This document shows positions 3,265 through 37,269 of a stretch of 64,000 nt of DNA, piece after piece. The position numbers and the translations under genes are program-made. Each line of letters starts with the position of its first letter. Within the stretch, counting starts at the first letter, position 1. The notes beneath the pieces were generated by a model. That model worked only from the letters and a program-made list of their open reading frames with translations. It was not told where the DNA came from and ran no database searches. Origin of the DNA: Deltaproteobacteria bacterium (lineage in GTDB: Bacteria; Myxococcota; Kuafuiibacteriia; Kuafuiibacteriales; Kuafuiibacteriaceae); contig JAVJQW010000033.1 in NCBI GenBank assembly GCA_040218735.1, positions 128,001 through 192,000 on the forward strand, in the 5' to 3' direction.

Positions 3265-3446
3265 GAGAGCTGACCCGGTGACGAGACGGCCGCTCGCCGG
3301 CCCTCGACGCGCCTGCTCGAACCGCGGCCTTCGGCCGCCCTTTCGGGCCGCTCGGTCCCTGGGACCCACCCAACTCCCTCCGCGGCGGCTCGACCGTGCG
3401 CGCCGATGACTCGACGAGCGCCTCCCTCGTCACCGGATCAGCTCTC
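3265..3446. repeat. 182-bp intergenic element with 21-bp terminal inverted repeats (MITE-like or structured RNA)
   Basis: GAGAGCTGACCCGGTGACGAG (3265-3285) and CTCGTCACCGGATCAGCTCTC (3426-3446) are 20/21 complementary. An internal hairpin GCGGCC-TTC-GGCCGC is present. Confidence 0.7.
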
Positions 3447-5044
3447 TAGCGCCGCTCCTGCGCGGCGACCTCGCGTTCGAGGCGGTCGAGCTCCCGCGCC
3501 CACACGTCCTGCTGACCTTGGTACGTGAACAGGTTGTTGATCTCCGCGACGAGCGCGTCCGCGCCGGCCGTCTGCAGACCTCGCGCGCGCGTGAGCAGGC
3601 GCTTCGTCGCGGTGGGGAGGGCGACGCGCTGAGCCTTCGGAGGAGCCGGCGGCGGCTCCGCCGGGGCCGGTGCAGGGCGCGGACGCGCGCGGGTGCGCTT
3701 CGGCTCCGGCCTGGGTTCGCGCGCCGGCTCCGCTCTGGATTCCGGAGGGGGCTCGGGCTCGGGCGCGACGGCGGCGACCGGGGTCGGCCGCGGGGTGATG
3801 CCGGGCGCCGCGGTCGGCTGCGGGCTCACGGCGACGGGCGGGGCTTCGACCGGTGCGGGCTGTGTCAACTCGTCTTGCAAGACCATCCCGCCACCGACGG
3901 CGCCGGCGAGCAGCGCGATCTGCAGCGCGATGCGCCCCGCGCGAGACTTCTCACGGCGCTCCGGGAGCGGGGTCTGCAGGAGCGCAGGGGTGTTCTCGAA
4001 CGTCGGGTCCGCGGGGACTTCGACCGGAACCTTGGGCTGCGAGAGCTTGGTGTGCCCGAGATCGAGCCGGCCCAGATCGGTGACTTCACTCTTGGAGGCG
4101 GCGAGCTCCTCCCACAGAAGCTGCCCGGCGAGGAACCACGCGGCGCCGGGTGCTTTGCGTTCCCCCGCGATGCGCTCGAGCGCGCGCTCGAACTCGGCCG
4201 CGTTGGCGAAGCGCTGTGCGGCGTCGTGCGCGAGCGCCTTCGCGAGGACGGTGTCGAGCGCGGAGGGGAGCTCGGAACGAACGCTCGACGGCGCGCGCCA
4301 CGGCGGCGCCGCGCACGCGAGGACACGATTGCCGCTCGCCTCCGTCTTCACGAACGGCTCCTGCGTCGCGAGCTCCCACAGGATCAACCCCGCGAGGTAC
4401 ACGTCCGTGCGCTGGTCGGTCGCCTCGCCGAACACCTGCTCCGGCGCCATGTACCCCGGCGACCCCATCACGACGCCGGGCGCGGTGCGCCACTGCTGCA
4501 TCACCGAGCGACCGAGGCCGAGGTCGATGATGCGCGCGTGGGCGTCCTCGCCGAGCACGATGTTGCGCGGGGAGAGATCGCGGTGGACCGCGAGGAGCGG
4601 CGTGCCGTCGTCGAGCGCCGCGGTGTGGATCGCCGCGAGGCCCGCGAGGACGTCGAGCCCGATCTCCGCGGCGGCCTGGAAGGTCATCCGGATGTCGGCC
4701 TTCGCGAGCTCCTCGAAGAGCCGCGCGAGGGTCCACCCCGCGACGTACTCCATCGCGATGTACGGCGTGCCGTCGACGAGGCCGGCGTCGTAGACCCGCG
4801 CGACGTGGGCGCAGTCGATCTTCAGCGCGAGCCGCGCCTCGTGCGCGAAGCGTTGGCGGACCCGCTCCTGGTCCACGAGGTCGGCGTGCATCCGCTTTAC
4901 GACGACGACGCTCGGCCAGCCTGGCTCCGGCTCCAGCACGCGCGCGATGTGGACGTCCCCGGTGGCACCGAGCCCGATGCGCTTCAGGAGGGCGTAGCGC
5001 CCGAAGTACTCGACGTCGTGCACGCGAAGGACCGCCCCCTCCAA
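3446..5044 (-). CDS. Membrane Hanks-type Ser/Thr protein kinase
   Basis: GLGATG, VVVK, HRDLSPRN, DLG, GSPGYMAPEQ; then one TM helix, a Pro-rich linker and a helical tail. Start is TTG 5044 or GTG 5023. Confidence 0.93.
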   Translation of the reverse strand: MEGAVLRVHDVEYFGRYALLKRIGLGATGDVHIARVLEPEPGWPSVVVVKRMHADLVDQERVRQRFAHEARLALKIDCAHVARVYDAGLVDGTPYIAMEYVAGWTLARLFEELAKADIRMTFQAAAEIGLDVLAGLAAIHTAALDDGTPLLAVHRDLSPRNIVLGEDAHARIIDLGLGRSVMQQWRTAPGVVMGSPGYMAPEQVFGEATDQRTDVYLAGLILWELATQEPFVKTEASGNRVLACAAPPWRAPSSVRSELPSALDTVLAKALAHDAAQRFANAAEFERALERIAGERKAPGAAWFLAGQLLWEELAASKSEVTDLGRLDLGHTKLSQPKVPVEVPADPTFENTPALLQTPLPERREKSRAGRIALQIALLAGAVGGGMVLQDELTQPAPVEAPPVAVSPQPTAAPGITPRPTPVAAVAPEPEPPPESRAEPAREPRPEPKRTRARPRPAPAPAEPPPAPPKAQRVALPTATKRLLTRARGLQTAGADALVAEINNLFTYQGQQDVWARELDRLEREVAAQERR

Positions 5045-5073
5045 GGTACAACAAAACCCATTAGACTACGGGG

Positions 5074-7434
5074 GTGCGGTCCCTGGCCCCCGTGTTCGTC
5101 GCCTTGTGCGCGTGTTCGTCGAATCCGCGACTCTCGGTGCCCCCGGAGCTGTCGGACGGCGACGCGGTGGTCTTCTACATCGCGGTCGAGGACGAGGATC
5201 CGGTGCTCTACGCGGCCGACGTCGCGGGGGAGGACATCGTCGTCCCGATCGACCTCGAGCCCGGCCAACGCGTCGAGACGGAGCTCGCGATCTACGACGA
5301 CCGCGCGCTCACCGAGCTGCAGCTCCCCCCGGGGCTCGTCACGTTCGAGACCGAGGGCGCGCCGCTCCCGGAGCCGAGCGCGCACTATGCGCTCACCACC
5401 GACGGCCCGCCCGCGGGGGCGCCGTTTTCACCCCTGGCGTGGTCGAGCTCGCGTCTCGCCGAGGCGCGTCTGTCGCGGTCGTTGCTCGCGTGCCTCGAGG
5501 CGCGCCGCTGCCTCACGGCGGAGGGGCTGTGTGTGGCGTGCGCGGGGCCCGAGCAGATCGATCCGCCGATGTCGCCGAGCCCGGTCGAGGTGACGTGCCC
5601 CACCGGGTGGACGGTGAACACGATCGCCAATCAGGACCCGCCGATTCAGATCTGTGACCCACGCATCGCGCAGGACCGGTTCGACTGCCCGCTCGGCGAG
5701 GCACGCAAGCTCGGCGACGACGCATGTACGCGCGTGGGCCGAGCCTGTCCTGCGGCGGGCCGATTTGCGGAGGGGGTCACGGGTTTGTTCGTCGATCCCA
5801 CCGCGGCCGCGGGCGGTGACGGCACGTTGGCGGCCCCCTACCGGACCCTCGACGAGGCACTCGACGTCGCGGACGGGAGCGCGCCGATCCTCCTCTCCGT
5901 CGGCCGCCACACCTCCGCGACGCGCAACGCGCTCTTGGACGCGGGCACCGCCGAAGCGCCGATCACGATCCGCGGCGCGTGCGCGACCGAGACGACGCTC
6001 GCGGGTGGCTTCGACGGGATGCGTTCGCACCTCCGCCTCGAGGATCTCGCGGTCGACGCGAGCGGCGCGTTCTACGTCGGTGCGGGCGGGAGCGTCGCGC
6101 TGGAGGGCGTGGCGCTCGAGTCCACCGTCGCGCCGATCCCGATCTACCAATCCAACGGGGCGCTGCTGCTGCGTGACGTCGTCGCGGACTCGAGCGGTGG
6201 CTTTGTGCATGCGGTCGAGTCGTCCGTAGTCGTCGACGGCGTCGTCGCGCGCGCGGTCGACGGGCACATCGTCGAGGTGACCGGCGGTCCGTCGGCGACG
6301 GTGCGCGACGCGGTGTTCGTCTCGGGGCGCCGCGAGCGACCGCTGTTGCGGATCGACGAGGCGACGCTCGTTCAGCTCCAGCGCGTCGCGTTCGAGGAGG
6401 CGGTCTGGACCGCCGTGCACATCGACGGCGGCGAGAGCGCATCGATCGAGGACCTGTTCTTCCGCACCGAGTCCGGTGTGCGCTTCCCGACGGTGTTCGC
6501 GGTCGTCGCGCACCGCATCAGCGCGAGCCTGCGACGCGTCTGGGTGCAGGGGGCGCTGGGGTTGTTCCACCTCGAAGCGCAGCTCGACGTCAGCGACGTC
6601 GTCGTGAACCCGGACAGCCCCGGCACGACGCAGGGGAGGCCGGCGGCGATCTGGATGGCCAATGCGTCGAGCGGCGCGCTGCGGCGCGCGGTGGTCTACG
6701 ACGCGCGCCGCCGCGGCATTCAGCTCGAGGCGTCGAACGTGGTGCTCACCGATATTCGCGTGCAGGGCGTGACGCCGGAGGAGGGCGCCGACCCGCCGGA
6801 CTTCCGCGAGGGGACCATCGGCATCTACATCACCGGTGAGCCGGCGACGGAGCTGTCGCGCGTCGTCATCCAGGACGTGGAGGGCGTCGCGCTCGCGCAG
6901 GCCACGGGCATCGCGTCGATCGGGCGCGAGCTGCGGATCAACGACCTCAACGTCAGCGCGTCGGGACCGACCAGCTGCTACGCGCGCGTCGGAGGATTCA
7001 TCGCGGGCGCGACCAACTACGTGATGACGCGCGCGCGGCTCGCGGACCTGCGTGGTCCCGCGATCGGCATGGACCTCGTCTCGGTCGGCGGTGTGCCCGC
7101 GCTCGCGGCGATGGTCGCGGACCACATCACGGTGTCGGGCGTGACGCGCATCCCGGAGTGCCCCGATCTGCCCGGCGCGATCGTCATCGCGGAGGGCGCG
7201 CAACTCGACTTGCGGAACTTCGAGGTCGGGTCGGCCGCCGCGCCGGGGATCGTGGTGCGCCCGAACACGGTGAACGCGGTGGACTACACGCTACTGGACG
7301 GGCGGTCGGGGCGGATCCACGACGTGTCCGTGGGGATTCGGTACGAGGTCGCAGACCCGCGCCTGGACGCGCTGGTGGACGTGAAGATCGAGCCGAGCGA
7401 CGGCGGCGCGGTGATCGAACACATCGCGCCCTAG
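5074..7434 (+). CDS. Lipoprotein with a Cys-rich segment and right-handed beta-helix (DUF1565-like cap)
   Basis: Lipobox LCAC, the motif FVDPTAAAGGDGTLAAPYRTLDEAL, then repetitive beta-strand segments. Confidence 0.8.
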   Translation: MRSLAPVFVALCACSSNPRLSVPPELSDGDAVVFYIAVEDEDPVLYAADVAGEDIVVPIDLEPGQRVETELAIYDDRALTELQLPPGLVTFETEGAPLPEPSAHYALTTDGPPAGAPFSPLAWSSSRLAEARLSRSLLACLEARRCLTAEGLCVACAGPEQIDPPMSPSPVEVTCPTGWTVNTIANQDPPIQICDPRIAQDRFDCPLGEARKLGDDACTRVGRACPAAGRFAEGVTGLFVDPTAAAGGDGTLAAPYRTLDEALDVADGSAPILLSVGRHTSATRNALLDAGTAEAPITIRGACATETTLAGGFDGMRSHLRLEDLAVDASGAFYVGAGGSVALEGVALESTVAPIPIYQSNGALLLRDVVADSSGGFVHAVESSVVVDGVVARAVDGHIVEVTGGPSATVRDAVFVSGRRERPLLRIDEATLVQLQRVAFEEAVWTAVHIDGGESASIEDLFFRTESGVRFPTVFAVVAHRISASLRRVWVQGALGLFHLEAQLDVSDVVVNPDSPGTTQGRPAAIWMANASSGALRRAVVYDARRRGIQLEASNVVLTDIRVQGVTPEEGADPPDFREGTIGIYITGEPATELSRVVIQDVEGVALAQATGIASIGRELRINDLNVSASGPTSCYARVGGFIAGATNYVMTRARLADLRGPAIGMDLVSVGGVPALAAMVADHITVSGVTRIPECPDLPGAIVIAEGAQLDLRNFEVGSAAAPGIVVRPNTVNAVDYTLLDGRSGRIHDVSVGIRYEVADPRLDALVDVKIEPSDGGAVIEHIAP

Positions 7435-7441
7435 AGCCTCG

Positions 7442-8236
7442 TCAGCGCTCACACGCGCCGGTGCCGACGGGGAGGCAGAACCGGTAGCTGTCGTCCCGGT
7501 TCGCCACCAGCACCCCCGCGGCGACGCCCACGACCGCGACGCCCACGCCGATCCCCACCCACGGCCAGGGGGACGACCACACCGATGTCGTCTCCAGCGC
7601 GACGTCGACGATCAGCGTCTGTCGCGCTTCGACGATCACCTCGCGTTCGAGCGGCGCGTAGCTCTCGGCCGTCGCGGTGATGACGTAGCGCCCGGCGGGG
7701 ACGACGACGCCGTCCGGGGGCACGACCTGTGCGCCGAGGGTCACGACGGCGGTCGGGGGTTGGACCTGTGCGCGAAGCACGCCGCCGCGCGGGTGGCCGG
7801 CGCCGTCGAAGATCTCCGCGAAGCGATCGGCGAGGCCTTCGACCGTGGGGCCGCGCGCTTCGAACGCGGTTTGCACCGTGGGTTTCGCGACGCCGGCACG
7901 CACCATCGTAATCGAGACGAGCGGTGGGGCGACTTCGAGGTTGGCGACGACGAGCACCGCGTGGGCGACGCCCGCGGTGCGCAGGCGCGATGCGATGCAT
8001 CGCGTGTCGGCGCGGCACGCGCGCAGCTCACGTCCGAGGGGGCGACCGATGCCGCCCGCGAGATCCTCCGGGCTGAGCGCGCGCAGCGACGGGACGAGTT
8101 GGATGGCGTCGCGCATCGCGCGGTCGAGCGAGGGCTCGTCGAGCGCGCGCGCCTGCGAGCTCACGACGCGGACCACCGTCGCCACCGGCTCGGGGGTCGG
8201 GAGCGCCGCGGCGAGGAGGAGAGCCGGCAGCACCAT
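7442..8236 (-). CDS. PEGA-like domain protein with a C-terminal TM helix
   Basis: Signal peptide; VPAGRYVITATAESY; WSSPWPWVGIG TM tail. ATG at 8236 overlaps the upstream TGA (TGATG). Confidence 0.75.
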   Translation of the reverse strand: MVLPALLLAAALPTPEPVATVVRVVSSQARALDEPSLDRAMRDAIQLVPSLRALSPEDLAGGIGRPLGRELRACRADTRCIASRLRTAGVAHAVLVVANLEVAPPLVSITMVRAGVAKPTVQTAFEARGPTVEGLADRFAEIFDGAGHPRGGVLRAQVQPPTAVVTLGAQVVPPDGVVVPAGRYVITATAESYAPLEREVIVEARQTLIVDVALETTSVWSSPWPWVGIGVGVAVVGVAAGVLVANRDDSYRFCLPVGTGACER

Positions 8237-9135
8237 CACGCGTCGTACTGGTCCGGTCGTTGGTCCTCGACGAGCTTCCAGCCCGAGGGGTCGGGGCGAC
8301 GGAGCAGCTCGAGATCGACGTCCGCCAACACGAGCCCCTCGTGGCTGCGGTCGTTCTCGATCGGGCCGTTCGGGCCGGCGACGTAGCTCTCCCCGAAGTA
8401 GTGCACGGCGAACGGCGGCTCGACGCCGTAGCGGTTCGAGCCGGCGATGAAGAGCCGGTGGCGCGCGGCGTCGACGAGGAACTCCATCATCCACATCCGC
8501 TCGGACTTCTCGCCGAACGTGACGGCCGGCGAGAACACGAGCTCGGCGCCGCGCCGTTTGAGCGTCCGCATCACGCCTTCGAAGTGACGGTCGTAGCAGA
8601 TGGCTACGCCGATCGTCGCGTAGCGCGTCGCGAAGACCGGGAAGAGGTCGCCGTCGGCCTCGTCGGCGCGGCCGTAGTAGAAGCCTTCGAAGAAGGTGCC
8701 CTTCTCGTTCGAGCCGTGCGGGATGTGCGTCTTGCGGTAGCGGCCGAGGTTCTTGCCGTCGGCGTCGAGCACGACCGCGGCGTTGAAGCGCCGGCCGTCC
8801 GGCGCGAGCTCGTAGATCGGCGCGACGATGACGATCTGAAGCTCCTCGGCGAGCGCCGACATGCGTCGCACCGTCGGCCCGTCTTCGGCGGATTCGGCGA
8901 GCGCCTTCCACATCTCGATCTTCGTCGCGGCGAAGTACGGCGCGGCGAACAGCTCGCCGAGGCCGATCATCTGCACGCCGGCCGCGACCGCTTCGCGAAT
9001 CAGGCGTTCGTGGTGGTCGAGGTTGGCCTCACGGAGCACCTCGAGGTGGGGAGCGAGTGACTCCAGGTCCTCGATACGCGCGGGCATCGGCGCGTACGCG
9101 TTCCGGGTCTCGGTCATGGCGATGCGTAGGTTCAT
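8236..9135 (-). CDS. Carbon-nitrogen hydrolase (beta-ureidopropionase / N-carbamoylputrescine amidase-like)
   Basis: Nitrilase E-K-C triad motifs GELF, YRKTHIP and ICYDRHF. Confidence 0.9.
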   Translation of the reverse strand: MNLRIAMTETRNAYAPMPARIEDLESLAPHLEVLREANLDHHERLIREAVAAGVQMIGLGELFAAPYFAATKIEMWKALAESAEDGPTVRRMSALAEELQIVIVAPIYELAPDGRRFNAAVVLDADGKNLGRYRKTHIPHGSNEKGTFFEGFYYGRADEADGDLFPVFATRYATIGVAICYDRHFEGVMRTLKRRGAELVFSPAVTFGEKSERMWMMEFLVDAARHRLFIAGSNRYGVEPPFAVHYFGESYVAGPNGPIENDRSHEGLVLADVDLELLRRPDPSGWKLVEDQRPDQYDA

Positions 9136-9211
9136 CTCGGGTGCGGTCCGCGGACGCTACCTCGGGATCGTCCCTGGATCTACGCGGTCGGCGTCCGCTA
9201 TGAGCGAGGTG

Positions 9212-10909
9212 ATGAAGGCTCTACGCCGCGCCGCGTTGGCGTCGATGGTCGCGCTCGGATGCGCCTCGAACGGGAAGGGGAAGGACGTCGTGGCGACCTC
9301 CGCGGCCGGGCTCGACCCGGCGCAGGTCGTCGCGATGTACATCGAGCGGTCCTTCGAGGAGCACCCGGACGTCGCGCGCGGCGCCGGTCTGCACGACTAC
9401 GACGGGCGCGTCGAGGAGGTCTCGAAGGCGGCCGTCGAGCGGCGGCTGGCGCGGGCGAAGGTCTACGTGGAGACCGTGAACGCGATCGATCCGGCGTCCG
9501 TCGAGGATCCGGTCCGCCTCGATCTCGAGCTGACACGGCTCGACGCGCTGCAGACGATCTTCGGAATCGAGCAGACGGAGGAGCACAGGAAGGTGCTGAG
9601 CTACGCCGGGCTCTTCGATACCAGCGGGTACCTCTCGCGCGACTACGCGCCGCTCGAGGTCCGCGTCGGCAAGTTGCTCGACCACGCGGCAGCCGCGACC
9701 GTGCGCGTCGACGACGTGCTCGCGATCCTGGATCCGAAGCAGCCGCGGACGCACCTCGCGACCGCCAAGGGGATGCTCGGGGGCTATCGATCGTTCTACG
9801 AAGGTGACGTCGCGACGCAGTCGAAGCCGGCGCTCGACGCGGAACCCGCGTTGGCGAAGCGCTTCGCGGAGGTGGTGCCGGCGCTCCTCGCGGCCGTGGA
9901 CCGGCTCATCGCGTGGATCGATGCGCACGAGGCCGAGGCGACCGATGACTTCGCGCTCGGCGAGGCGAAGTTCCTCGAGATGCTGCGCGTGAACGAGGAC
10001 CTCGAGATCACGCTGCCCGAGCTCCAACGAATGGCCGATGCGAACTACCGAGCGAACTACGACGCCTACGTAGCGACGGCGAAGCGGATCGATCCGAACA
10101 AGTCGGTGCAGGAGGTCGCCGCGATGGTCGCGGCGGAGCGGCTCCCCGCCGACCAGGTGATCACCACCGCGGCCCAGCAGCTCGACACGCTGCGAGAATA
10201 TATCGAAGCGAATGACATCATCACCATCGGGAGCGACGAGCGCGCGACGGTGAAGGTCACGCCGCCGTTCCTCCGCTTCAACTCCGCGTTCCTCGACATG
10301 GCGGGCCCGTTCGAGAAGGCGAAGGGCAGCTTCTATTACATCTCGCCGCCGGACCCGTCGTGGCCGAAGGCCACGCAGGAGGCGTACATCCCGTGGGCCG
10401 GTGATCTGCTCGGCACTTCGATTCACGAGGTCTACCCGGGTCACTTCGTGCACGGGCTGCAGTTCAGGCGCGCACCGACGAAGGCGCAGAAGATCTACGG
10501 CTCGTACGCGTTCATCGAGGGTTGGGCGCACTACACGGAGCAGATGATGCTCGACGCCGGGTACGGCGACGACGACCCGCGTCTGCGCCTCGGCCAGCTC
10601 TCGAACGCGCTGCTCCGCAACTGTCGTTTCCTCGCGGCGCTCGGGTTGCATACCCAAGGCATGACGGTCGAAGCGGCGGAGACGATGTTCCAGGAGAAGT
10701 GCTTCGTCGATCCCGGCAACGCGCGGCAGCAGGCGTTCCGTGGGACCTTCGATCCGGGGTACCTCAGCTACACCCTCGGCAAGCTCGCGATCCTCGACCT
10801 GCGCGAGAAGTTCTTCGCCGCGAAGAAGACGAAGAGCCTGCGCGCGTTCCACGACTGGCTGCTTTCGTACGGCGGCGCGCCGGTCGCGCTGATCGCGAAG
10901 CGGATGTGA
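9212..10909 (+). CDS. DUF885 family lipoprotein (putative metallopeptidase)
   Basis: Lipobox ALGC; HEVYPGH, EGWAHYTE, SYTLGK..I..LR and FHD motifs; GAGG precedes ATG 9212. Confidence 0.9.
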   Translation: MKALRRAALASMVALGCASNGKGKDVVATSAAGLDPAQVVAMYIERSFEEHPDVARGAGLHDYDGRVEEVSKAAVERRLARAKVYVETVNAIDPASVEDPVRLDLELTRLDALQTIFGIEQTEEHRKVLSYAGLFDTSGYLSRDYAPLEVRVGKLLDHAAAATVRVDDVLAILDPKQPRTHLATAKGMLGGYRSFYEGDVATQSKPALDAEPALAKRFAEVVPALLAAVDRLIAWIDAHEAEATDDFALGEAKFLEMLRVNEDLEITLPELQRMADANYRANYDAYVATAKRIDPNKSVQEVAAMVAAERLPADQVITTAAQQLDTLREYIEANDIITIGSDERATVKVTPPFLRFNSAFLDMAGPFEKAKGSFYYISPPDPSWPKATQEAYIPWAGDLLGTSIHEVYPGHFVHGLQFRRAPTKAQKIYGSYAFIEGWAHYTEQMMLDAGYGDDDPRLRLGQLSNALLRNCRFLAALGLHTQGMTVEAAETMFQEKCFVDPGNARQQAFRGTFDPGYLSYTLGKLAILDLREKFFAAKKTKSLRAFHDWLLSYGGAPVALIAKRM

Positions 10910-12019
10910 TCAGCGCTGGCGTAGGAAGGTGATCAGCGCGTCGCGATCCGCCGGCGAAAGCTCCAACCCGAACCGGTGACCCGGCACCGAACGCTCCGGA
11001 TCCAAGAGATCCTCGAGCCCCTCGACGCGCCCCATCGACAGGAGCCGCTCGCGCTGACCGACGCCGAGCAAGGAAGGCACACGCCACGTCCCGGTCGTGC
11101 GCGCCGGGGACCGCGCGACGGCGTCCGGCGTTCCGATCTCCTCGATGGCGCGGGGCGCGTTCGGCCGACCGTCCGCGCCGTGGCAAGTCGCGCACTCCGC
11201 ATCGAACGTCGCGTTCGAGGTCCACGCGGGGAGGGTGTCGGCCATGCGCCACAGGTACAGCGCGAGTGCAAACGCGACGACGCGCGGCGGGCGGCGCGCC
11301 TCCGACACCGAGGTGAGGAGGAGCGTCTCGAGGCGCACGGCGAGCGCGATGGGATCGTTCTTCAGCGTCGCCGCGCGGTGCAGGTGCGTCTGGTGTTGGA
11401 TCGGTCGGAGGTCGGGGATCGCGGTCGGGTTGTCGACGCCGTCCGCGGTGACGTCGAGCGCGCCGAGGCCCCACGCGCTCTGTTCGGTCTGCGTGCCGTA
11501 GAAGTCGTCGTAGAGGCGCCCGAGATCGAGCCGGTGGTTCGGGACGCCCACGGCGTCGGGGCGCGCGTGACACGTCGCGCAGGTGAAGGCGGGGAACACG
11601 CCGTCGCCGAGGTCGACTTCGACGTACGAACCCGGCCACACGCCGTAGTCCTCGACGTCCGCTTTACCGAGCGCGTCCGCGAGCTGCACCGGGTACGCGA
11701 AGAACGCGCGCTCCCCGAGCGCGAGCAGCGAGGCTTCGTCGAGCGCGGCGTCCCAGGTGTCTTCGTCCCAGGTCGCGGCGCCCGGCGTACGCACGCGCGG
11801 CCGCCACTCGTCGAGCGCACCCCACACATCCTCGCGGTATCGCTCCAACCGGCGCGCGCTGTAGCCGTTCGTCGGGTCGACGATCGACGCCTCCAGCGCT
11901 TGCCGACCCGCGCTCATCGACGCGACGTAGGCGCTCCCGCGCTCCATCAACGACGGCGTCGCGTCGCTGCGCTCGCCGCCGCAACCGGCGACGAGCACGA
12001 GGCAGATCAGCCGGCGCAT
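10910..12019 (-). CDS. Di-heme c-type cytochrome lipoprotein
   Basis: Lipobox VAGC, two CATCH heme motifs, and a VPSLLGV...GHRFG...DRDALITFL C-terminus like di-heme peroxidase/RoxA-type proteins. Confidence 0.75.
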   Translation of the reverse strand: MRRLICLVLVAGCGGERSDATPSLMERGSAYVASMSAGRQALEASIVDPTNGYSARRLERYREDVWGALDEWRPRVRTPGAATWDEDTWDAALDEASLLALGERAFFAYPVQLADALGKADVEDYGVWPGSYVEVDLGDGVFPAFTCATCHARPDAVGVPNHRLDLGRLYDDFYGTQTEQSAWGLGALDVTADGVDNPTAIPDLRPIQHQTHLHRAATLKNDPIALAVRLETLLLTSVSEARRPPRVVAFALALYLWRMADTLPAWTSNATFDAECATCHGADGRPNAPRAIEEIGTPDAVARSPARTTGTWRVPSLLGVGQRERLLSMGRVEGLEDLLDPERSVPGHRFGLELSPADRDALITFLRQR

Positions 12020-12642
12020 TGCGCGTCCGAGCACGACCAGCGCTCGCCCACGCGATCGTAGCGGCAGTACCAGCCCGCCCCCGGGCAGTCGCTGTCGTTC
12101 ACGCACTCGTCCTGCTCCGTATGGCAATAGTACCCGACGGTGCCGAGGTAGCTGCCGCAGTCGCCGAACGTCGGCGAGCAGAAGTTGCCGGTGCCGCAGT
12201 CTGCGTCGACGAGGCAGTTGCCCTGGCGCATGCAAATGTTCGCGTCGGAGCCGAACCCGCCGTTGCACTGGCAGACGTTGGACTCGCAGTCGCTGTCGAC
12301 GAAGCACTCGTCGTACGTGCAGACGTAGCCGAAGCGCATCTGCAGGCAGCGCCCGTTGTCACCGTCGGTGCAGTCGTCGTGCGCGGCGCACTGGTCTTCC
12401 GGGTTGCCGCTCGGGACGACCTGTGGGCTCGGCCGCGTCATGTCGCAGTCGATGCGTTCGGGGCGGTGTTTCTCGGGGGCTTCGACGCCCGCGTCGGGGA
12501 GCGTCCCGCCGTCGCGTACGAACCCGGCGTCGCGCGGCGGCGTCGTGGATCCGCCGTCGCGGTCGAGGCCGACCGTGGTGCGCGCACCGCAGCCTGCGGC
12601 GGCAAGTATCAGAAATCCGAGGGTGATTTTGCCCGTCCACAT
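12007..12642 (-). CDS. Cys-rich lipoprotein
   Basis: Lipobox AAGC, an RDAG/RDGG linker, and four CxxDxDC-like repeats. Confidence 0.8.
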   Translation of the reverse strand: MWTGKITLGFLILAAAGCGARTTVGLDRDGGSTTPPRDAGFVRDGGTLPDAGVEAPEKHRPERIDCDMTRPSPQVVPSGNPEDQCAAHDDCTDGDNGRCLQMRFGYVCTYDECFVDSDCESNVCQCNGGFGSDANICMRQGNCLVDADCGTGNFCSPTFGDCGSYLGTVGYYCHTEQDECVNDSDCPGAGWYCRYDRVGERWSCSDAQCAG

Positions 12643-12672
12643 GTCCAACGGGCTATAGCGGATGAGGCGGGA

Positions 12673-12701
12673 CCTCGGCGCGTGAAATCCACGCGCCGAG
12701 G
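12673..12701 (-). terminator. 12-bp perfect stem-loop downstream of the subtilase gene
   Basis: CCTCGGCGCGTG-aaatc-CACGCGCCGAGG; no U-tract follows. Confidence 0.55.
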
Positions 12702-12712
12702 GACATCTGTCG

Positions 12713-14458
12713 TTATCGGCAGGTCTTCGAGCCGTTGCGGCCGCGGCACTTGTTCGAGCAGCAGTCGCTGTTGCTCGTGCAGGCGTCGCCGGGCTGACCG
12801 AGGTTGCAGCCGCCGCCGGTGTTGCAGTCGGAGTCGGCGGCGTCGATCGCGCCGTCGCAGTCGTTGTCGAGGCCGTCGTTGCAGCTCGACTCCGTCGTCT
12901 CGGTCGGCGTGCAGCCGCTGCCGCCGGCGAGGATGGCTTCCGCGGCCGAGGCCTGCACGAGGCCGAAGCCGTACGCGTTGTCGCGGCCGGCCGGGCCGAG
13001 GTCGAGCGCGGACTGCGTCAGCGCGTTGCGCACGTCCGTGTTGGTGCGCGACGGGTAGTGGCTCCAGATCAGCGCCGCGACGCCCGCGACGTGCGGGGTG
13101 GCCATCGAGGTGCCGTCATAGAAGTCGTAGCCGCTTCCGGTCGTCGAGAGGTTCACGACGTTGCCGCTCTGCCCGAGGTTGTTGTTCACGATCGCCTGGC
13201 CGTCCGCCTGCGAGAGGCTGATGGCCGGGATCGAGCTGGTGTTCCCCGCGCCGAGCGTGCCGGAGAAGGGACCCGCGACGTTGTTGTAGATGATCGCCGC
13301 GGCGGCGCCGCCGGCCTGGGCGTTCTGCACCTTGTCGTTGAACGCGATGCTGCCGCGCTCGCACATCACGACCGCGCCGGACCACGAACCCACGCTGTCA
13401 CAGAGGCCGCCGTCGACGACGGGGCCGCTCGCGCCGGAGCTCTGCGCCGCGAACTCGATCGCGCCACCGGAGTACGTGTTCCCGCCGACCGTGATCGTGT
13501 GATTGCCGATGTACGGGACCGTGCTCTCGACGCCGACGCCCGGGGCGGCCAGCTCGACCTGGTTCGTCTGCTGCGAGAAGCTCGCGACCTGCATGTTGGA
13601 GTCGATCGCGGCGACCGACACGACCGAGTCGTAGGACGCGGGGTACGAGTGGCGCGTGTTGCCGTCGTTACCGGCGGCGGCGATCGAGAGGATGCCGGCG
13701 TTGTTCGCGTCGCGGAAGGCGCGGTTCTCGAAGTTGCTCTTCTGCGCGCCGCCGAGGCTCATGTTGACGACGATGTTGCCGCCCTGCTGCGCGCACTGGT
13801 CGAGCGCCGCGACGAGCGAGGACGAGTACGCCCACGCGCAGTCGTTACCGAACACCTTCACGATGTGGAGGTTCACGTTGCCGTTGCGGTTCACGCCGAC
13901 GACACCCGTGGAGTTGTTGAGCGCCGCGACGGTCCCCGCGACGTGTGTGCCGTGTCCGCAGCCGTCGACGTACGGGTTGCCGCTGCCCGAGTCGGGCGAC
14001 GCCGTGACGTTTGCGCTCTGAAGATCTTCGTGCGCGCTGTAGTAGCCCGAGTCGATGATGCAGACCGTCGTGTTGCCCGCGGCGGTGTCGGCGACCTGAA
14101 GCGCCTGCACCATCGTGATGCCGTAGGGCGTCGTTTGGGCCATCGGCCATCGCGGTGCGTCGGCTTCGATCGACGCGACCCACTTGTTGTGCCGGAGGCC
14201 TTCGATCGCGCGCTCCGGGATGTACGCCGCGACGGTGTCGTACTTGGGGAAGGCGTGCACGACGTGGGCGCCGATCTCTTGGAGCGCGGCCGAGCCTTGT
14301 TTCATGTCCTTGAAGGTGACGATGAAACGCGCGCCGCGTTTGTCGGTGAGGTTGGCCGGGCTGTTGAAGCGCTTGCCGGGCGCGGCGATGGCGACGGTGG
14401 ACGTCAGCAAGGTCGCCGCTGTCGCGACACCGAGCCAGGTTCGAATCTTCGGCTGCAT
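12713..14458 (-). CDS. Secreted S8 subtilisin-like serine protease with propeptide, PA domain and Cys-rich tail
   Basis: IIDSG, HGTHVAG, AAAGN, GTSMATPHVAG; PA insert (ERGSIAFNDKVQNAQAGGA); CNDGLDNDCDG motif; AAGGAG upstream of the start. Confidence 0.95.
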   Translation of the reverse strand: MQPKIRTWLGVATAATLLTSTVAIAAPGKRFNSPANLTDKRGARFIVTFKDMKQGSAALQEIGAHVVHAFPKYDTVAAYIPERAIEGLRHNKWVASIEADAPRWPMAQTTPYGITMVQALQVADTAAGNTTVCIIDSGYYSAHEDLQSANVTASPDSGSGNPYVDGCGHGTHVAGTVAALNNSTGVVGVNRNGNVNLHIVKVFGNDCAWAYSSSLVAALDQCAQQGGNIVVNMSLGGAQKSNFENRAFRDANNAGILSIAAAGNDGNTRHSYPASYDSVVSVAAIDSNMQVASFSQQTNQVELAAPGVGVESTVPYIGNHTITVGGNTYSGGAIEFAAQSSGASGPVVDGGLCDSVGSWSGAVVMCERGSIAFNDKVQNAQAGGAAAAIIYNNVAGPFSGTLGAGNTSSIPAISLSQADGQAIVNNNLGQSGNVVNLSTTGSGYDFYDGTSMATPHVAGVAALIWSHYPSRTNTDVRNALTQSALDLGPAGRDNAYGFGLVQASAAEAILAGGSGCTPTETTESSCNDGLDNDCDGAIDAADSDCNTGGGCNLGQPGDACTSNSDCCSNKCRGRNGSKTCR

Positions 14459-14609
14459 GGGTTCTTCGAGCTCCTTGTTGCACCGCGCGGCAGAAGTGCC
14501 GAACGGTTGGGGCAACACTGTGCGGATACGTGCAGCTTCTTGAAGACTCGAACGCACCGACGGACGCATGTCGCCGTATGCGTCGAGATTGCGTCAGACC
14601 GGTTGGTAC

Positions 14610-17015
14610 TCAGTCGAGCGCGACGCGGTAGACGTCGGCCTGGCTGTTGTCGCGGAACACGACGTCCTCGCGGACGATCGGCTCACCGAAGCGGAGGTAG
14701 TTCAGGCCGCGGAGGTTGTTCGTGATTGCGCCGTCCGTCGCGGTGAACATCCCGTCGACGCCCATCGAGATTCCGGCACACCCGTTGTTCGTGAACGTGA
14801 AGCGTTCGATGAACGCCTCCGTCTCCGAGAGCGCGAGCTGAGAGCTCCACGCCTCCGCGAAGAACGCGGAGCCCGGGCCGCGGAGGTTGCCGCCGCCGCG
14901 GTTCTCCGAGCAGTAGATGTCGCGCTCGAGCGCGTCGTCCGGGACGTTGGCGCCCGTGCCGTCGACCGTCAGGTCTTCGACGTTCGCCAGGGCGCCCCAC
15001 ACGTACAGACCGTACAGCTCGACGTCCGCGATCGCGGCGCGTCTCAACGTCAACGTGCCGCTGCGGATGATGACGCCGATGCGGCCGGACGACTCGCCTT
15101 CGACCGTGAGCCCGTCGATGTCCACCGCTGGCACGAGCGCGTCCTCGGCGCAGTTGCCGCGGCAGTCCGCGCCGATCGCCGTCATGGCGTCGCGCACGAC
15201 GACGTTGCGGATCGTCGCCGTGGTTCCTGCGCACGGTGCGATGCCGGTCGTGAGCGGGCCGAGCAGGGTCAGGTCGTCGATCGTCATCGTCACGCGGCTC
15301 GGCGTCTCGGGGGCGAAGCCTTCCAGGCACACGTTCGAGACGCCGGGGAGCGGCGCGACCTCGGTGGAGCGCGCGGCCCCGGCGCGGACGCGGCCCGAGC
15401 TCGCGACCCGGTCGAGATCCAACGTCGAGGTTCCGAAGAGATCCACCAGCGACTCGACGCCGGCCGCGTCGACGTCCCGGAGGACGACCTGGGCGGCGCC
15501 TTCGGCTTCGACGACATCCCCCGCTGCGCCCTCGACGCTCACGCGATCCAACGTCAGCGAAGCGCTCCCCTCCGCAGAGAACAGCGTGCCGCGCGACGTG
15601 TGACGGATGCGGGCGCGCACGAACGTGAGGGTCCCCGCGACGGACGACGCGACGGGCCCGTTCACGACGTCGACGTCGGTGGCGCTCAGCTCGGCGCCGG
15701 CGTTCACCGCAGCGAACGAGTGCGTCACGAACGCGGAGTCGCTCACTTCGACACGGCCTCCTTCGACGACGAAAGCGGGCGGCGTGTTGGCGGCGTCGAG
15801 CCACACGCGGGACACGTCGGCCTCGCCGCCCGTGACGCGCAGCGCGGGTGCGTCGAAGAACACGGCGCGCGAAACGTTCGACGTCCCGCCCGTCACGGTG
15901 ATCGCCGCCGCGATGGTGGCTTCGAAGACGACGTCGTCGACCGTGGCCGCGCCAGCGCTTTGCAACGCGCCGGCGACGAAGTGCGTGCGCTCGACGACGA
16001 GCGCACCCGTCGACGTGATCTGTGGGCCATCCACGACGGTGTCCACGACGCGAACGTCCCCGGAGGTCGTGAGGTTGTTCGTGGAGAGCAGGACACCATC
16101 GAACGTGACGTCCGCGCCCGCGCCGATCGTCGGCGCGCCGACCAGCGTCGTCTCCGCTGGGCACGTCCCGCGGAGCACGATGGTGCCGTCGATCGCGGGG
16201 ACGGAGTGCTGGCCCGCGGAGAGGAACAGCGTCGCGGGGCCGGTCGTCGCGGCGAGCGCGGCGGCGATCGAGTCGTAGGGCGAGCCGGTCGTGCCGTTCC
16301 CATTCGGCGCCGCGGCGAGGTCGACGTAGACCTCCGCCCCCACCGGGTTCGCGGTGCCGCGCCACGGCGTGCCGGGGCAGGCGACGAGCGGTGCGCACTG
16401 CGCGTCTTCGAGGCGCTGGACTTGGCCGGCGGGGCACGTGCGGCGGGACGCGGGCCGGCAGCGGCCGGAGCCGTCGAGCGCGAAGCCTTCGGCGCAGGCG
16501 TAATTCCACGCGGTCGGGCCCGCGACGGCGGGGGGCGGTGCGACGTCGGTTGGCGTTGGGCAGGGCTGCCCGCAGACGAGCCGGTCGTCGAAGAAGTGCC
16601 AGCACGCGTTGGCGGCGTCGCAGGTCGACGGTTCCTCGAGCCGCAGGTCGTCGATGAAATCGGGCCGCGGAACGATCTCGTTCCACTGTCGCTCCACGCT
16701 CTGCCAAACGTAGGTGAGCGCACCCGCCGGAACGGGGCGCCCCGCCTCGGGGTCGACCTCCGCCGTCACCCGCCCGGGTTCGAGTCCGTAGTCTGCGAGC
16801 GCGCCCGGGTAGGCGATCAGCACGACGTCCGCGCCGGAGCCGATCCCGAGAGGCGGCGGTCGTTGTCCGGGTTCGAGTGCGAAGAGGATCGGGAAACCCG
16901 TGCCCTCACGCACGATGAGGAGCGACGCGTGGTCGGGTTCCACCGGGAGCTGCACGGGGATCGACTCCGTGCAGGCCATCGCGAGCGCGACGGTGATGTA
17001 GGCGAAGCGCCGCAT
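14610..17015 (-). CDS. Lipoprotein with a Cys-rich segment and beta-helix, paralog of 5074..7434
   Basis: Lipobox AMAC; YVDLAAAPNGNGTTGSPYDSIAAAL; LRGTCPAETTL. Confidence 0.8.
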   Translation of the reverse strand: MRRFAYITVALAMACTESIPVQLPVEPDHASLLIVREGTGFPILFALEPGQRPPPLGIGSGADVVLIAYPGALADYGLEPGRVTAEVDPEAGRPVPAGALTYVWQSVERQWNEIVPRPDFIDDLRLEEPSTCDAANACWHFFDDRLVCGQPCPTPTDVAPPPAVAGPTAWNYACAEGFALDGSGRCRPASRRTCPAGQVQRLEDAQCAPLVACPGTPWRGTANPVGAEVYVDLAAAPNGNGTTGSPYDSIAAALAATTGPATLFLSAGQHSVPAIDGTIVLRGTCPAETTLVGAPTIGAGADVTFDGVLLSTNNLTTSGDVRVVDTVVDGPQITSTGALVVERTHFVAGALQSAGAATVDDVVFEATIAAAITVTGGTSNVSRAVFFDAPALRVTGGEADVSRVWLDAANTPPAFVVEGGRVEVSDSAFVTHSFAAVNAGAELSATDVDVVNGPVASSVAGTLTFVRARIRHTSRGTLFSAEGSASLTLDRVSVEGAAGDVVEAEGAAQVVLRDVDAAGVESLVDLFGTSTLDLDRVASSGRVRAGAARSTEVAPLPGVSNVCLEGFAPETPSRVTMTIDDLTLLGPLTTGIAPCAGTTATIRNVVVRDAMTAIGADCRGNCAEDALVPAVDIDGLTVEGESSGRIGVIIRSGTLTLRRAAIADVELYGLYVWGALANVEDLTVDGTGANVPDDALERDIYCSENRGGGNLRGPGSAFFAEAWSSQLALSETEAFIERFTFTNNGCAGISMGVDGMFTATDGAITNNLRGLNYLRFGEPIVREDVVFRDNSQADVYRVALD

Positions 17016-17083
17016 GCGTCGAAACGATCCGACAGTACTCGAACCTCGATTTTCTCGCGATCCGGGGTGCGCCTGCGCACGTA

Positions 17084-18880
17084 TTGGATTCGGAGGACTA
17101 CACGATCACCGCCCCCACTCCACCCGTCATCGCCGGTCGCTACCGGTGTGGCCGCGTCCTCGGTACCGGCGCGACGAGCACCGTGTACGAGGGCCGAGAC
17201 GCGTCGACGGGCGCGGCCGTCGCGATCAAACGCATCTTCGCCGAAGTCTCCGCGTACCGAGACGGCGGGGACCTCCTTCGACGCGAGGTCGGCGTGGCGG
17301 ACCGTGTGCGCCACGAAGGCCTCGTGCAGGTGTACGACGCAGGTCAGGATTCGGACGGCACGTTTTTCATCGTGATGGAGCTTTTGTCCGGTCGCACCTT
17401 CGAGGAGCAGCTGGAGAGCGGGAGCGCTTCGGTCGCGACCTCGCTGGACGTGGTCGAGGCGGTCCTCGAGCCGCTCGCCGCGCTGCACGCCCACGGGGTG
17501 GTCCACCGGGATCTGAAACCCTCGAACATCTTCCTGACCGACGACGGGCGCGTGAAGCTCCTCGACCTCGGCATCGCCAAACACGCGCAGGACGCGTCCG
17601 TCACCAAGACCGGCGCGGGCGTGGGGACCCCGAACTACATGGCGCCCGAGCAGGCGGTGAGCGCGCGCGACGTGACCCCCGCCGCCGACGTGTGGAGCGT
17701 CGGCGCGTTGCTCTACCGCGTCCTGACCGGGCGCCTCCCGTTCGAAGGTGAAAACGCGTACGAGGTGGTCCTCAAGGCGTGCACCGAGGTGCACGCGCCG
17801 GCGACGCGGTGGACGCCCGACGCCGACCCGTCGTTGGTTGCGCTGATCGATCGGTGCCTCGTGAAGGCGCCGGAGCACCGCATCTCTCAGGCCTCGGAAG
17901 TCGCGGTCGCGCTGCGCGAGGTGCGGGCCGGGACGTACGTGCCGATAGAGGCCGCCGCGTTCGTGGATCCCGCGCTGGCCGCCCTCGCGCGCGCCGCGAC
18001 CGAACCCGGCGACGGCGCAACCGCGGACGCTCCGACGCAGCGCGCGTATCGCGACGTCTCGATCGAGCTGCCGCGCTCGAGGCGCACGAAGTACGCCGCG
18101 ATGTTGTTCGTCGTCTTCGGCCTCGGGGCCGCTGCGGGGGTGGGGTGGTGGTGGTCGGCGCCGATGCGGCGAGCGCCGGTGCGATCTGTTGCCCCGGAGC
18201 GTGGCGGTTACGGCGAAACAGCGGGGGGTACGCGAGCGCTGATCGGTTCGGACGCGGACACGGGTTCGGACTCGGTGACGGGTTCGGATTCGGTTGCGGG
18301 TTCGGATTCGGTTGCGGGTTCGGACTCGGTGACGGGTTCGGACTCGGACACGGGTTCGGACTCGGACACGGGCCCGGATCCGGTCACGGGCTCGGACTCG
18401 GTGACGGGTTCGGGTTCGGTTGCGGGTTCGGACTCGGTGACGGGTTCGGATTCGGATACGCGTTCGGGTGCTGCGTCGGGTTCGCGTACCGCGCGGCGTC
18501 CTCGTCGGGCGCCGAAGCGCGCCTCCGCGCTGGGCGCTGCGTCTGATTCCGTCACCGAGCCCGACTCTGCATTCGCGTCCGACTCCGAATCCGCATCCGA
18601 TCCCGATTCCGATTCCGATCCCGGGTCCGACTCCGAATCCGCATCCGATCCCGATTCTGATCCCGTGACCGAGTCCGAGTCCGAGTCGGACTCCGAGACC
18701 GAGTCGGACTCCGACACCGCGTCCGACTCCGCCGCGGCCGACGCCCCGGACACCACGCCGCCCATCCGCACCAACGACGCCGGCGTCCGCGCCGCGCCGC
18801 CGACCACAGTGGCGCCGCCGCCGCCCCCGCCGCCCAAGAAGAAGAAGGAGAAGAAGTCGGCCCCGTTCCTCACGTTCTGA
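17084..18880 (+). CDS. Membrane Ser/Thr protein kinase with a Ser/Asp-repeat C-terminal region
   Basis: GTGATS, VAIK, HRDLKPSN, DLG, GTPNYMAPEQ; TM helix; GSDSVT repeats. Confidence 0.93.
   Translation: MDSEDYTITAPTPPVIAGRYRCGRVLGTGATSTVYEGRDASTGAAVAIKRIFAEVSAYRDGGDLLRREVGVADRVRHEGLVQVYDAGQDSDGTFFIVMELLSGRTFEEQLESGSASVATSLDVVEAVLEPLAALHAHGVVHRDLKPSNIFLTDDGRVKLLDLGIAKHAQDASVTKTGAGVGTPNYMAPEQAVSARDVTPAADVWSVGALLYRVLTGRLPFEGENAYEVVLKACTEVHAPATRWTPDADPSLVALIDRCLVKAPEHRISQASEVAVALREVRAGTYVPIEAAAFVDPALAALARAATEPGDGATADAPTQRAYRDVSIELPRSRRTKYAAMLFVVFGLGAAAGVGWWWSAPMRRAPVRSVAPERGGYGETAGGTRALIGSDADTGSDSVTGSDSVAGSDSVAGSDSVTGSDSDTGSDSDTGPDPVTGSDSVTGSGSVAGSDSVTGSDSDTRSGAASGSRTARRPRRAPKRASALGAASDSVTEPDSAFASDSESASDPDSDSDPGSDSESASDPDSDPVTESESESDSETESDSDTASDSAAADAPDTTPPIRTNDAGVRAAPPTTVAPPPPPPPKKKKEKKSAPFLTF
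18245..18460 (+). repeat. 12 x 18-bp coding tandem repeat (GSDS[V/D][T/A])
   Basis: Consensus GGTTCGGACTCGGTGACG; units counted directly. Confidence 0.9.
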
Positions 18881-37232: not shown

Positions 37233-37233
37233 T

Positions 37234-37262
37234 CTGACAGATCCGATTCGAGTCGTTATCCT
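37234..37262 (+). promoter_or_regulatory. Putative sigma70-type leaderless promoter
   Basis: CTGACA, 17 bp, TATCCT, then 7 nt to an in-frame CTG at 37270. Confidence 0.55.
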
Positions 37263-37269
37263 ACGAACG

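Follow-up and report, generated by a model that had tools for sequence, protein, structure and literature searches.

An envelope lipoprotein family whose N-terminal domain adjoins one clade of single-pass Hanks-type kinases more often than expected in a Kuafuiibacteriaceae genome

The 64,000-nucleotide stretch of contig JAVJQW010000033.1 analysed here, which will be referred to as the window, belongs to an 11.6-Mb genome of a member of the Kuafuiibacteriaceae with approximately 70% G+C in 70 contigs (label G000). It carries two genes for membrane-bound Ser/Thr kinases (kinase 1 and kinase 2), each lying next to a gene for a large predicted lipoprotein (lipoprotein 1 and lipoprotein 2). Both lipoproteins begin with a domain situated directly behind the lipid-anchored cysteine, which will be referred to as the N-domain. 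Throughout the genome, a single-pass Hanks kinase is several times more frequent next to a gene for an N-domain protein than next to other genes, an excess that is mostly accounted for by one clade of kinases. This arrangement hints at a sensor partnership across the cell envelope. The first pair (3446-7434) fits the recurrent pattern of clade and N-domain, whereas the second (14610-18880) could represent a looser variant or be adjacent by chance; it is possibly coincidental because kinase 2 belongs to another clade and is devoid of the C-terminal stretch found in kinase 1.

To collect the paralogs of the two lipoproteins in the genome, a tblastn search was followed by a search with a hidden Markov model (HMM) made from the first matches, yielding 20 clear paralogs (score >150) and 7 weak ones. 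A gene was regarded as kinase-adjacent when a kinase frame lay within 500 bp. Six of the 20 paralogs, all of the beta-helix type described below, were kinase-adjacent. In the background this held for 6.3% of the other genes (424/6695; p=0.0012) and for 93 of 1554 genes of at least 600 amino acids (aa) (p=0.00086). The number of kinases in this genome is high, with 280 kinase frames detected by HMM and 290 candidates by a Pfam-based search. Nevertheless, a kinase-rich island as the cause was ruled out by the distance profile. Six kinase edges were located at 0-500 bp from the paralog ends versus approximately 1.1 expected from control genes (Poisson p ~1e-3), and the bins from 0.5 to 50 kb contained 0, 2, 7, 9 and 17 edges, corresponding to 0 to 1.5 times the genome density; because the excess ends at 500 bp, the enrichment does not stem from such an island. 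A general tendency of lipoprotein genes to lie beside kinases was likewise ruled out, since among the other predicted lipoproteins 33 of 796 were kinase-adjacent (Fisher p=1.9e-4 versus 6/20). The family of sigma-54/FHA activators (one member checked against Pfam), which are the commonest kinase neighbours, was used as a calibrator and showed an effect of similar size (16/74).

The strongest signal was obtained with an HMM of the lipoprotein N-terminus, a check proposed in the initial annotation of this DNA. The N-domain itself was found through the flanks of kinase-1-like kinases in five other genomes, which contained matches to the first ~130 profile positions only. In the genome under study the N-domain HMM detected 30 frames, comprising 17 of the 20 beta-helix paralogs and 13 shorter proteins. 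Three of the shorter proteins were read and start with a lipobox followed by other C-terminal parts, and no Pfam family was found in the four short forms scanned (4/4). Eight of the 30 N-domain proteins were kinase-adjacent (binomial p=4e-4), and five of the eight adjacent kinases belong to a 20-member clade (clade A+), compared to three among the other 250 kinases (Fisher p=6.5e-5). Kinases of this clade also pair with N-domain lipoproteins that are devoid of a beta-helix; the beta-helix is hence not the part that tracks the kinases.

Kinase 1 was assigned to a clade of eight tips (clade A, support 0.985) nested in clade A+ (support 0.956), and kinase 2 to a separate clade of 18 tips (support 0.969) in the tree of the genome's kinases. 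Three of the eight clade A members adjoin lipoproteins of the family. The tail plan common to clade A consists of the kinase domain, a transmembrane segment, a long spacer rich in Pro or in acidic residues, then a basic patch and finally a C-terminal stretch of ~60 residues, which in kinase 1 and the clade A kinases we take to be helical, judging the sequences by eye. In 16 of the 20 clade A+ members the catalytic loop reads HRD-x-S/A-P-K/R-N and not HRDLKPxN, the basic residue being displaced by two places, and the remaining 4/20 deviate from this loop, which resembles the HRDLAARN loop of eukaryotic tyrosine kinases. In kinase 1 the loop maps to 4500-4530 of the window. A third clade A+ kinase of the window (36961-38937, plus strand, frame C52_164961_166937) carries the loop HRDVGSRN and has no N-domain neighbour; four clade A+ members are located on contig C52. 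A joint duplication of kinase and lipoprotein gene as one block may be considered for the sister kinases C54_77729 and C9_245475, which are both convergent to their lipoprotein genes, but those lipoproteins are not sisters on their tree. A lipoprotein of ~830 residues (C67_60313; L116:10514-13219, plus strand, G000:C67), which is encoded divergently from a clade A kinase, was considered as a hidden N-domain protein and rejected (hhalign probability 0.5%); it represents a different, unnamed family.

Both window kinases exceeded the curated cut-off of Pkinase (PF00069; 31.7 bits) and contain the catalytic motifs of Hanks-type Ser/Thr kinases. Kinase 1 (P0001; 3446..5044, minus strand, 532 aa) matched with 95.9 bits (E=3.6e-27) and shows the motifs IGLGATG, VVVVK, HRDLSPRN, DLG and MAPE, whereas kinase 2 (P0004; 17084..18880, plus strand, 598 aa) matched with 173.3 bits (E=8.4e-51) and shows LGTGATS, VAIK, HRDLKPSN, DLG and MAPE. 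In kinase 1 the Pfam kinase domain (residues 17-280, about 4205-4996) is followed by a predicted transmembrane segment (residues 372-390, about 3875-3931), a spacer rich in Pro, a patch of basic residues and, at the C-terminus, a stretch of ~65 residues (about 3449-3646); in an alignment, 8 other clade members showed this tail plan. Kinase 2 is composed of the kinase domain (residues 21-269, about 17144-17890), a predicted transmembrane segment (residues 338-356, about 18095-18151) and a tail of ~190 residues of Ser-Asp-rich repeats with a Pro/Lys-rich end (18230-18800), in which no C-terminal stretch of the kinase 1 type was seen. In each kinase the transmembrane segment is the sole strongly hydrophobic 19-residue window after the kinase domain. 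Pfam domains beyond kinase-type profiles were found in neither protein, and a recognisable sensor domain was absent from every kinase tail examined. The Ser-Asp repeats of kinase 2 match the SD-repeat regions of models for staphylococcal MSCRAMMs (microbial surface components recognizing adhesive matrix molecules) in NCBIfam, and a spacer of the same kind is present in a clade A kinase (G000:C21:33342-35411). That the two kinases differ in type, as had been noticed from HRDLSPRN versus HRDLKPSN, is borne out by an identity of 30% and by their distinct clades. A recent block duplication was therefore correctly excluded, the lipoproteins being old paralogs as well.

Lipoprotein 1 (P0002; 5074..7434, plus strand, 786 aa) contains a signal peptide ending in the lipobox Cys14, followed by an N-terminal beta-sandwich domain (residues ~15-137; 5110-5475 in the alignment), a Cys-rich linker (~138-235) and a right-handed beta-helix (~236-786). 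Lipoprotein 2 (P0003; 14610..17015, minus strand, 801 aa) is built correspondingly, with the N-terminal domain after Cys15 (residues ~15-128; 16635-16976), the linker at ~129-226 and the beta-helix at ~227-801. BLASTP aligned the two over 333 columns with 26% identity (E=1e-12), and this match together with the family of 20 paralogs corroborates the initial annotation, which had described them as diverged paralogs; the motifs quoted there (LEPGQR, AL...L.PG.VT.E, VD..AA..G.GT...PY.....AL, LS.G.H and RG.C..ETTL) are all present. The 20 paralogs align at ~22% identity. A lipobox cysteine preceded by a hydrophobic stretch is invariant in 20/20 paralogs and in 19/19 N-domain segments, which are thus predicted lipoproteins, whereas a crude lipobox regular expression matched only 11 of the 20. 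Besides the lipobox cysteine four more cysteines are invariant and five others occur in at least 90% of the sequences; 8-10 conserved cysteines are present per lipoprotein. The motif G-D-G-T...P-Y...A-L common to the paralogs resembles the start of DUF1565 (PF07602), to which homologs show weak matches.

Neither lipoprotein matched a family in Pfam at E<=0.1, PF13229 (Beta_helix) included, or in NCBIfam. The proposed beta-helix fold is nevertheless supported by an AlphaFold2 model of lipoprotein 2 with a mean predicted local distance difference test score (pLDDT) of 77, showing an all-beta N-terminal domain, the Cys-rich linker and a long right-handed beta-helix whose short strands recur regularly between residues ~260 and 790, and by PF13229 matches above the cut-off in 13 of 16 full-length homologs scanned in a wide search. 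Foldseek against the PDB yielded six matches at E<=0.001, five chains of PL6 alginate lyases and one rhamnogalacturonan lyase (best E 2e-4), and at weaker E values Pel9A, mannuronan epimerases and phage tailspikes; the TM-scores were low (0.13-0.30, with 0.15-0.22 for the PL6 rows). For residues 20-225 of lipoprotein 2 the Protein Atlas gave no usable feature match, all structural rows having TM<=0.30. The N-domain of lipoprotein 1 was modelled with a pLDDT of 90 as a generic, putatively FN3/Ig-like sandwich. Its best VIA-align Z of 5.7 was a tie between CueP, the FN3 domains of gp130 and a secretin pilot protein, values of Z<8 possibly reflecting a common arrangement only, and the best Foldseek E was 0.28.

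A profile search of 1.84 billion representatives retrieved 4928 proteins at E<=1e-30, whereas word-based searches yielded close orthologs only. In the phylum, of which 301 genomes were searched, the full architecture hardly occurs outside the bacterial family of the window; beyond that family all hit frames but one match the profile from positions 137-176 onward only. The N-terminal beta-sandwich and the Cys-rich linker are specific to this lipoprotein family. These analyses show a lineage-restricted superfamily of envelope lipoproteins, defined by a predicted, possibly FN3/Ig-like beta-sandwich of ~120 residues directly after the lipid-anchored cysteine, which in the long form, represented by both window genes, is followed by a Cys-rich linker of disulphide type and a beta-helix of ~550 residues.

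In a genome of the same genus both pairs are kept, as is the entire run of genes that begins with kinase 1 and ends with the gene beyond kinase 2. The lipoproteins, with identities of 52% and 55%, are the most diverged genes of this run, the neighbours reaching 61-95% (versus L096 and L098), among them kinase 1 with 95%, kinase 2 with 73%, the subtilase with 84% and the DUF885 protein with 76%. Exposed envelope proteins typically evolve quickly or diversify, and the two lipoproteins appear to do so. Within lipoprotein 1 the N-domain is the best-kept part (71% identity to the same-genus ortholog, compared to 47% for the beta-helix). From the kinase side, five other genomes were evaluated, and the counts hold among the matches listed, 185 kinase and 59 N-domain matches lying outside the listing. 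Five of the 26 kinases most like kinase 1 had an N-domain match within 3.5 kb, compared to 4 of 124 less similar kinases (p=0.008), including 2/6 in G006 and 3/14 in G010. A further kinase-1-like case with a lipoprotein neighbour was detected in G006 beyond those five. At L189 the kinase gene is convergent with an N-domain lipoprotein gene, and its upstream gene was read from the translation as an FHA/sigma-54 activator; at L193 and L180 the kinase gene is followed co-directionally by the lipoprotein gene, with a gap of 14 bp at L180. The kinase tails of L189 and L193 follow the plan of clade A. Among the matches listed, the bias of clade kinases towards N-domain neighbours is seen again in two other genera and is absent from two. 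The gene order FHIPEP export gene, kinase, beta-helix lipoprotein was observed in two genera, at L004 (G000:C38) and L054 (G011:C1:4271188-4290987), and between the two lipoproteins no tblastx match of at least 60 bits was detected. In G004 (C88:198857-206199, L071-L073) three lipoprotein genes of the family lie in tandem on one strand, with a kinase gene 489 bp past the last.

The open reading frames confirmed the two kinase/lipoprotein pairs of the window at the positions first assigned to them, with divergent gaps of 29 bp (gap 1, 5045..5073, richer in A+T than the surrounding sequence) and 68 bp (gap 2, 17016..17083). No sigma-70-like promoter was detected in either gap (0 in gap 1, none in gap 2), a scan that is uninformative for the host organism. 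Gap 1 contains a terminator-like hairpin followed by a T-run (5072..5057, minus strand) directly upstream of the kinase 1 start (1 found versus 0.1 expected in shuffles), which could be a 5′ leader element or merely an AT-rich promoter patch; the scan gave no terminator-like match in gap 2. The gene for a subtilase (12713..14569, minus strand; Peptidase_S8 E=1.7e-40, PA domain E=1.4e-16) follows that for lipoprotein 2 on the same strand after 40 bp, the gene order is kept in the same-genus genome, and the two are possibly co-transcribed. Proteases are also encoded near further paralogs, namely a trypsin-like (C64) and a calpain-like protease (C6), an imelysin near C5 and an S9 peptidase near C27. 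The other neighbours of the pairs in the window comprise a PEGA-like protein, a DUF885 protein, a cytochrome c and unknowns, and the 94 neighbouring proteins scanned around the 20 paralogs are in other respects heterogeneous. A small family with members at G000 positions C39:444454-445254, C51:2942-4219, C61:431557-432546 and C62:3388-4620 has a tighter kinase link than the lipoprotein family, with 5/6 members kinase-adjacent; one adjacent member, judged by eye, contains a TPR-like part, a Pro-rich stretch and a C-terminal transmembrane helix.

We favour, at about even chances, the reading that N-domain lipoproteins are paired across the envelope with one kinase clade as co-sensors in trans, the association being partial (approximately a quarter of the members) and free in orientation. 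The predicted topology, with the kinase C-termini beyond a single transmembrane segment, allows contact between the partners. The kinase tail would span the periplasm in the manner of a TonB-type spacer, and its C-terminal stretch, taken as a helical hairpin, would dock on the membrane-proximal N-domain of the lipoprotein. The variable C-terminal module of the latter, a beta-helix or another part, would bind an extracytoplasmic ligand, plausibly a glycan; binding would alter clustering and autophosphorylation of the kinase, and the signal would be passed to cytoplasmic targets such as FHA/sigma-54 activators. We infer that such a lipoprotein co-sensor in trans is the most economical mechanism. 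A more far-reaching version, which we put forward only tentatively and consider rather doubtful, would regard the N-domain as a dedicated docking module by which interchangeable ligand-binding modules are plugged into one clade of sensor-less Hanks kinases via the periplasm-spanning Pro-rich tail and the C-terminal stretch; each genome would then possess dozens of such modular 'receptors in trans'.

Several findings weigh against the co-sensor reading. Clade and domain were singled out from the data, which makes the respective p-values post hoc; neither paralogs nor related genomes count as independent, and the gene calls are crude frames based on G+C at third codon positions (GC3). Counting immediate neighbours in the GC3-based gene list reduced the signal to 4/18 versus 7.1% (p=0.034), and trimmed gene coordinates gave 7/30 adjacent N-domain proteins with 4/7 of the kinases in clade A+. 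Orientation is not uniform: the six beta-helix pairs comprise two divergent, two co-directional and two convergent ones, and the N-domain pairs of the genome three divergent, two convergent and 3-4 co-directional ones, with roughly one member in four being paired. As orientations are mixed, the head-to-head layout initially described for the window pairs is not the layout of the association. Further kinases of the clade adjoin unrelated genes, such as FHA/sigma-54 activators, a sugar transferase and a different lipoprotein. The expectation that the family lies next to kinases more often than by chance holds in this genome (6/20) but not in other genera, where 73 beta-helix members in nine further genomes of the same bacterial family showed six kinase edges within 500 bp versus 3.76 expected (p=0.18). 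By genome, adjacency amounted to 4/14 in G006 and only 1/29 in G011 and 0/5 in G012, and among the matches listed the kinase-side counts were 0/3 in both G011 and G004. On the lipoprotein tree adjacency is scattered, and the closest relatives that the two window genes have outside the genus do not show it. Since the whole run is kept, conservation of the pairs within the genus is general synteny of the region, and the N-domain of lipoprotein 2 is kept no better than the remainder of the protein (49% versus 57%).

These points might be explained by the absence of any functional link. Two large expanding families, about 280 kinases and at least 30 N-domain lipoproteins, would then land next to each other by chance, synteny would inherit the adjacency, and the enrichment would reflect small numbers, kin paralogs and post hoc choice. 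Same-genus synteny, mixed pair orientation and the lack of a significant excess in other genera agree with this explanation, as do the 1/22 homologous frames that were kinase-adjacent in other families of the phylum, the G011 counts from both the lipoprotein and the kinase side, the heterogeneous paralog neighbours, and the pair of the C38 type common to G000 and G011, which also keeps its flanking FHIPEP gene. It does not account well for an excess limited to the first 500 bp with none from 0.5 to 50 kb, for the lack of enrichment among other lipoproteins (33/796), or for the Fisher p of 6.5e-5 within the genome and of 0.008 across five others (among the matches listed). Moreover, the same kinase clade has N-domain partners in three genera, where the lipoproteins are non-orthologous and their C-terminal modules differ. 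We regard a pure coincidence as somewhat unlikely, though deserving serious consideration.

Two further explanations retain a link but dispense with direct sensing by the lipoprotein. The kinase might control lipoprotein transcription, for example via an FHA/sigma-54 activator, making the lipoprotein an output with a glycan-binding or glycan-degrading role at the surface and no sensor. Divergent pairs with gaps of 29-68 bp would have a common control region, co-directional pairs are possible operons (14 bp in L180, about 3 bp in C4), kinases have sigma-54/FHA activators as their most frequent neighbours (16/74) with a putative one directly upstream of the L189 kinase, and a fold matching polysaccharide lyases and tailspikes would suit an effector. 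Convergent pairs (C54, C9_247582 and L189), however, do not suit shared promoters, and the N-domain tracks the kinase clade irrespective of the C-terminal module, which is more easily explained by protein contact than by a shared regulon; we consider this regulatory explanation improbable. Alternatively, the beta-helix lipoprotein could be a periplasmic or surface polysaccharide lyase or epimerase whose products are sensed indirectly by the neighbouring kinase. The best of its Foldseek matches (E from 2e-4) are indeed PL6 alginate lyases, a rhamnogalacturonan lyase, Pel9A and mannuronan epimerases, but TM-scores of 0.13-0.30 indicate fold-level likeness only, the kinases possess no folded sensor domain for product binding, and the same kinases are also paired with short N-domain lipoproteins that lack a beta-helix, rendering this possibility very unlikely.

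Lipid-anchored periplasmic proteins that modulate a membrane histidine kinase are known from NlpE-CpxA, RcsF-Rcs and LpqB-MtrB, LpqB being encoded beside its kinase. In contrast to the family described here, which is multi-copy and rapidly diverging, these are single conserved two-component systems with histidine kinases and unrelated lipoproteins. The C-terminal ~550 residues of the window lipoproteins are predicted to adopt the same fold as right-handed beta-helix proteins (PF13229, PF07602, PL6/PL9 lyases and phage tailspikes), from which they differ in matching no Pfam or NCBIfam model and in adding the N-terminal beta-sandwich and the Cys-rich linker.

The initial statement that no system with this layout has been described was too strong. 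In the threonine-phosphorylation pathway of the H1 type VI secretion system (T6SS) of Pseudomonas aeruginosa, a lipoprotein of the outer membrane functions upstream of a Hanks kinase of the inner membrane (TagQ/TagR-PpkA; PMC13713981). This pathway has clustered genes, a single-pass kinase whose periplasmic part is reached by an intrinsically disordered linker, and a readout by an FHA protein (PMC13713981), features that are similar to those considered here. There is no relation in sequence or fold to the window pairs, however. The periplasmic domain of PpkA is folded, and PpkA depends on the formylglycine-generating enzyme (FGE)-like TagR as well as on TagS/T, whereas the tails of the window kinases consist of a spacer and a short C-terminal stretch (kinase 1) or of repeats (kinase 2), with neither adjacent TagR/S/T-like genes nor a T6SS context. 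TagQ/TagR-PpkA is also one dedicated module, unlike the many paralogous pairs per genome found here. TagQ/TagR-PpkA is hence the closest known concept, which the proposed mechanism would resemble by analogy, and the window pairs are not members of that system.

Myxobacteria carry hundreds of eukaryote-like kinases. The genome studied here, with about 280 kinases and with kinases located beside FHA/sigma-54 activators (16/74), resembles the myxobacterial Ser/Thr kinome in general. The reason for this large kinome is stated as unknown in a review (PMC4880591). In the literature searched, including passages of that review (PMC4880591), no description of lipoprotein partners of myxobacterial kinases was found. 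If the link to the kinases is not real, a large unnamed superfamily of envelope lipoproteins has been defined nonetheless, the two window members of which diverge faster than their neighbours, and the pairs would be an example of how easily kinase-rich genomes yield convincing-looking 'modules'. If it is real, the lipoproteins would supply sensing in trans and thereby name the missing input side of a whole kinase clade, with the N-domain and the C-terminal tail of the kinase as the pairing rule. Docking of exchangeable modules, if it takes place, would further help to explain how some of the numerous myxobacterial kinases without a recognisable sensor domain perceive their signals.

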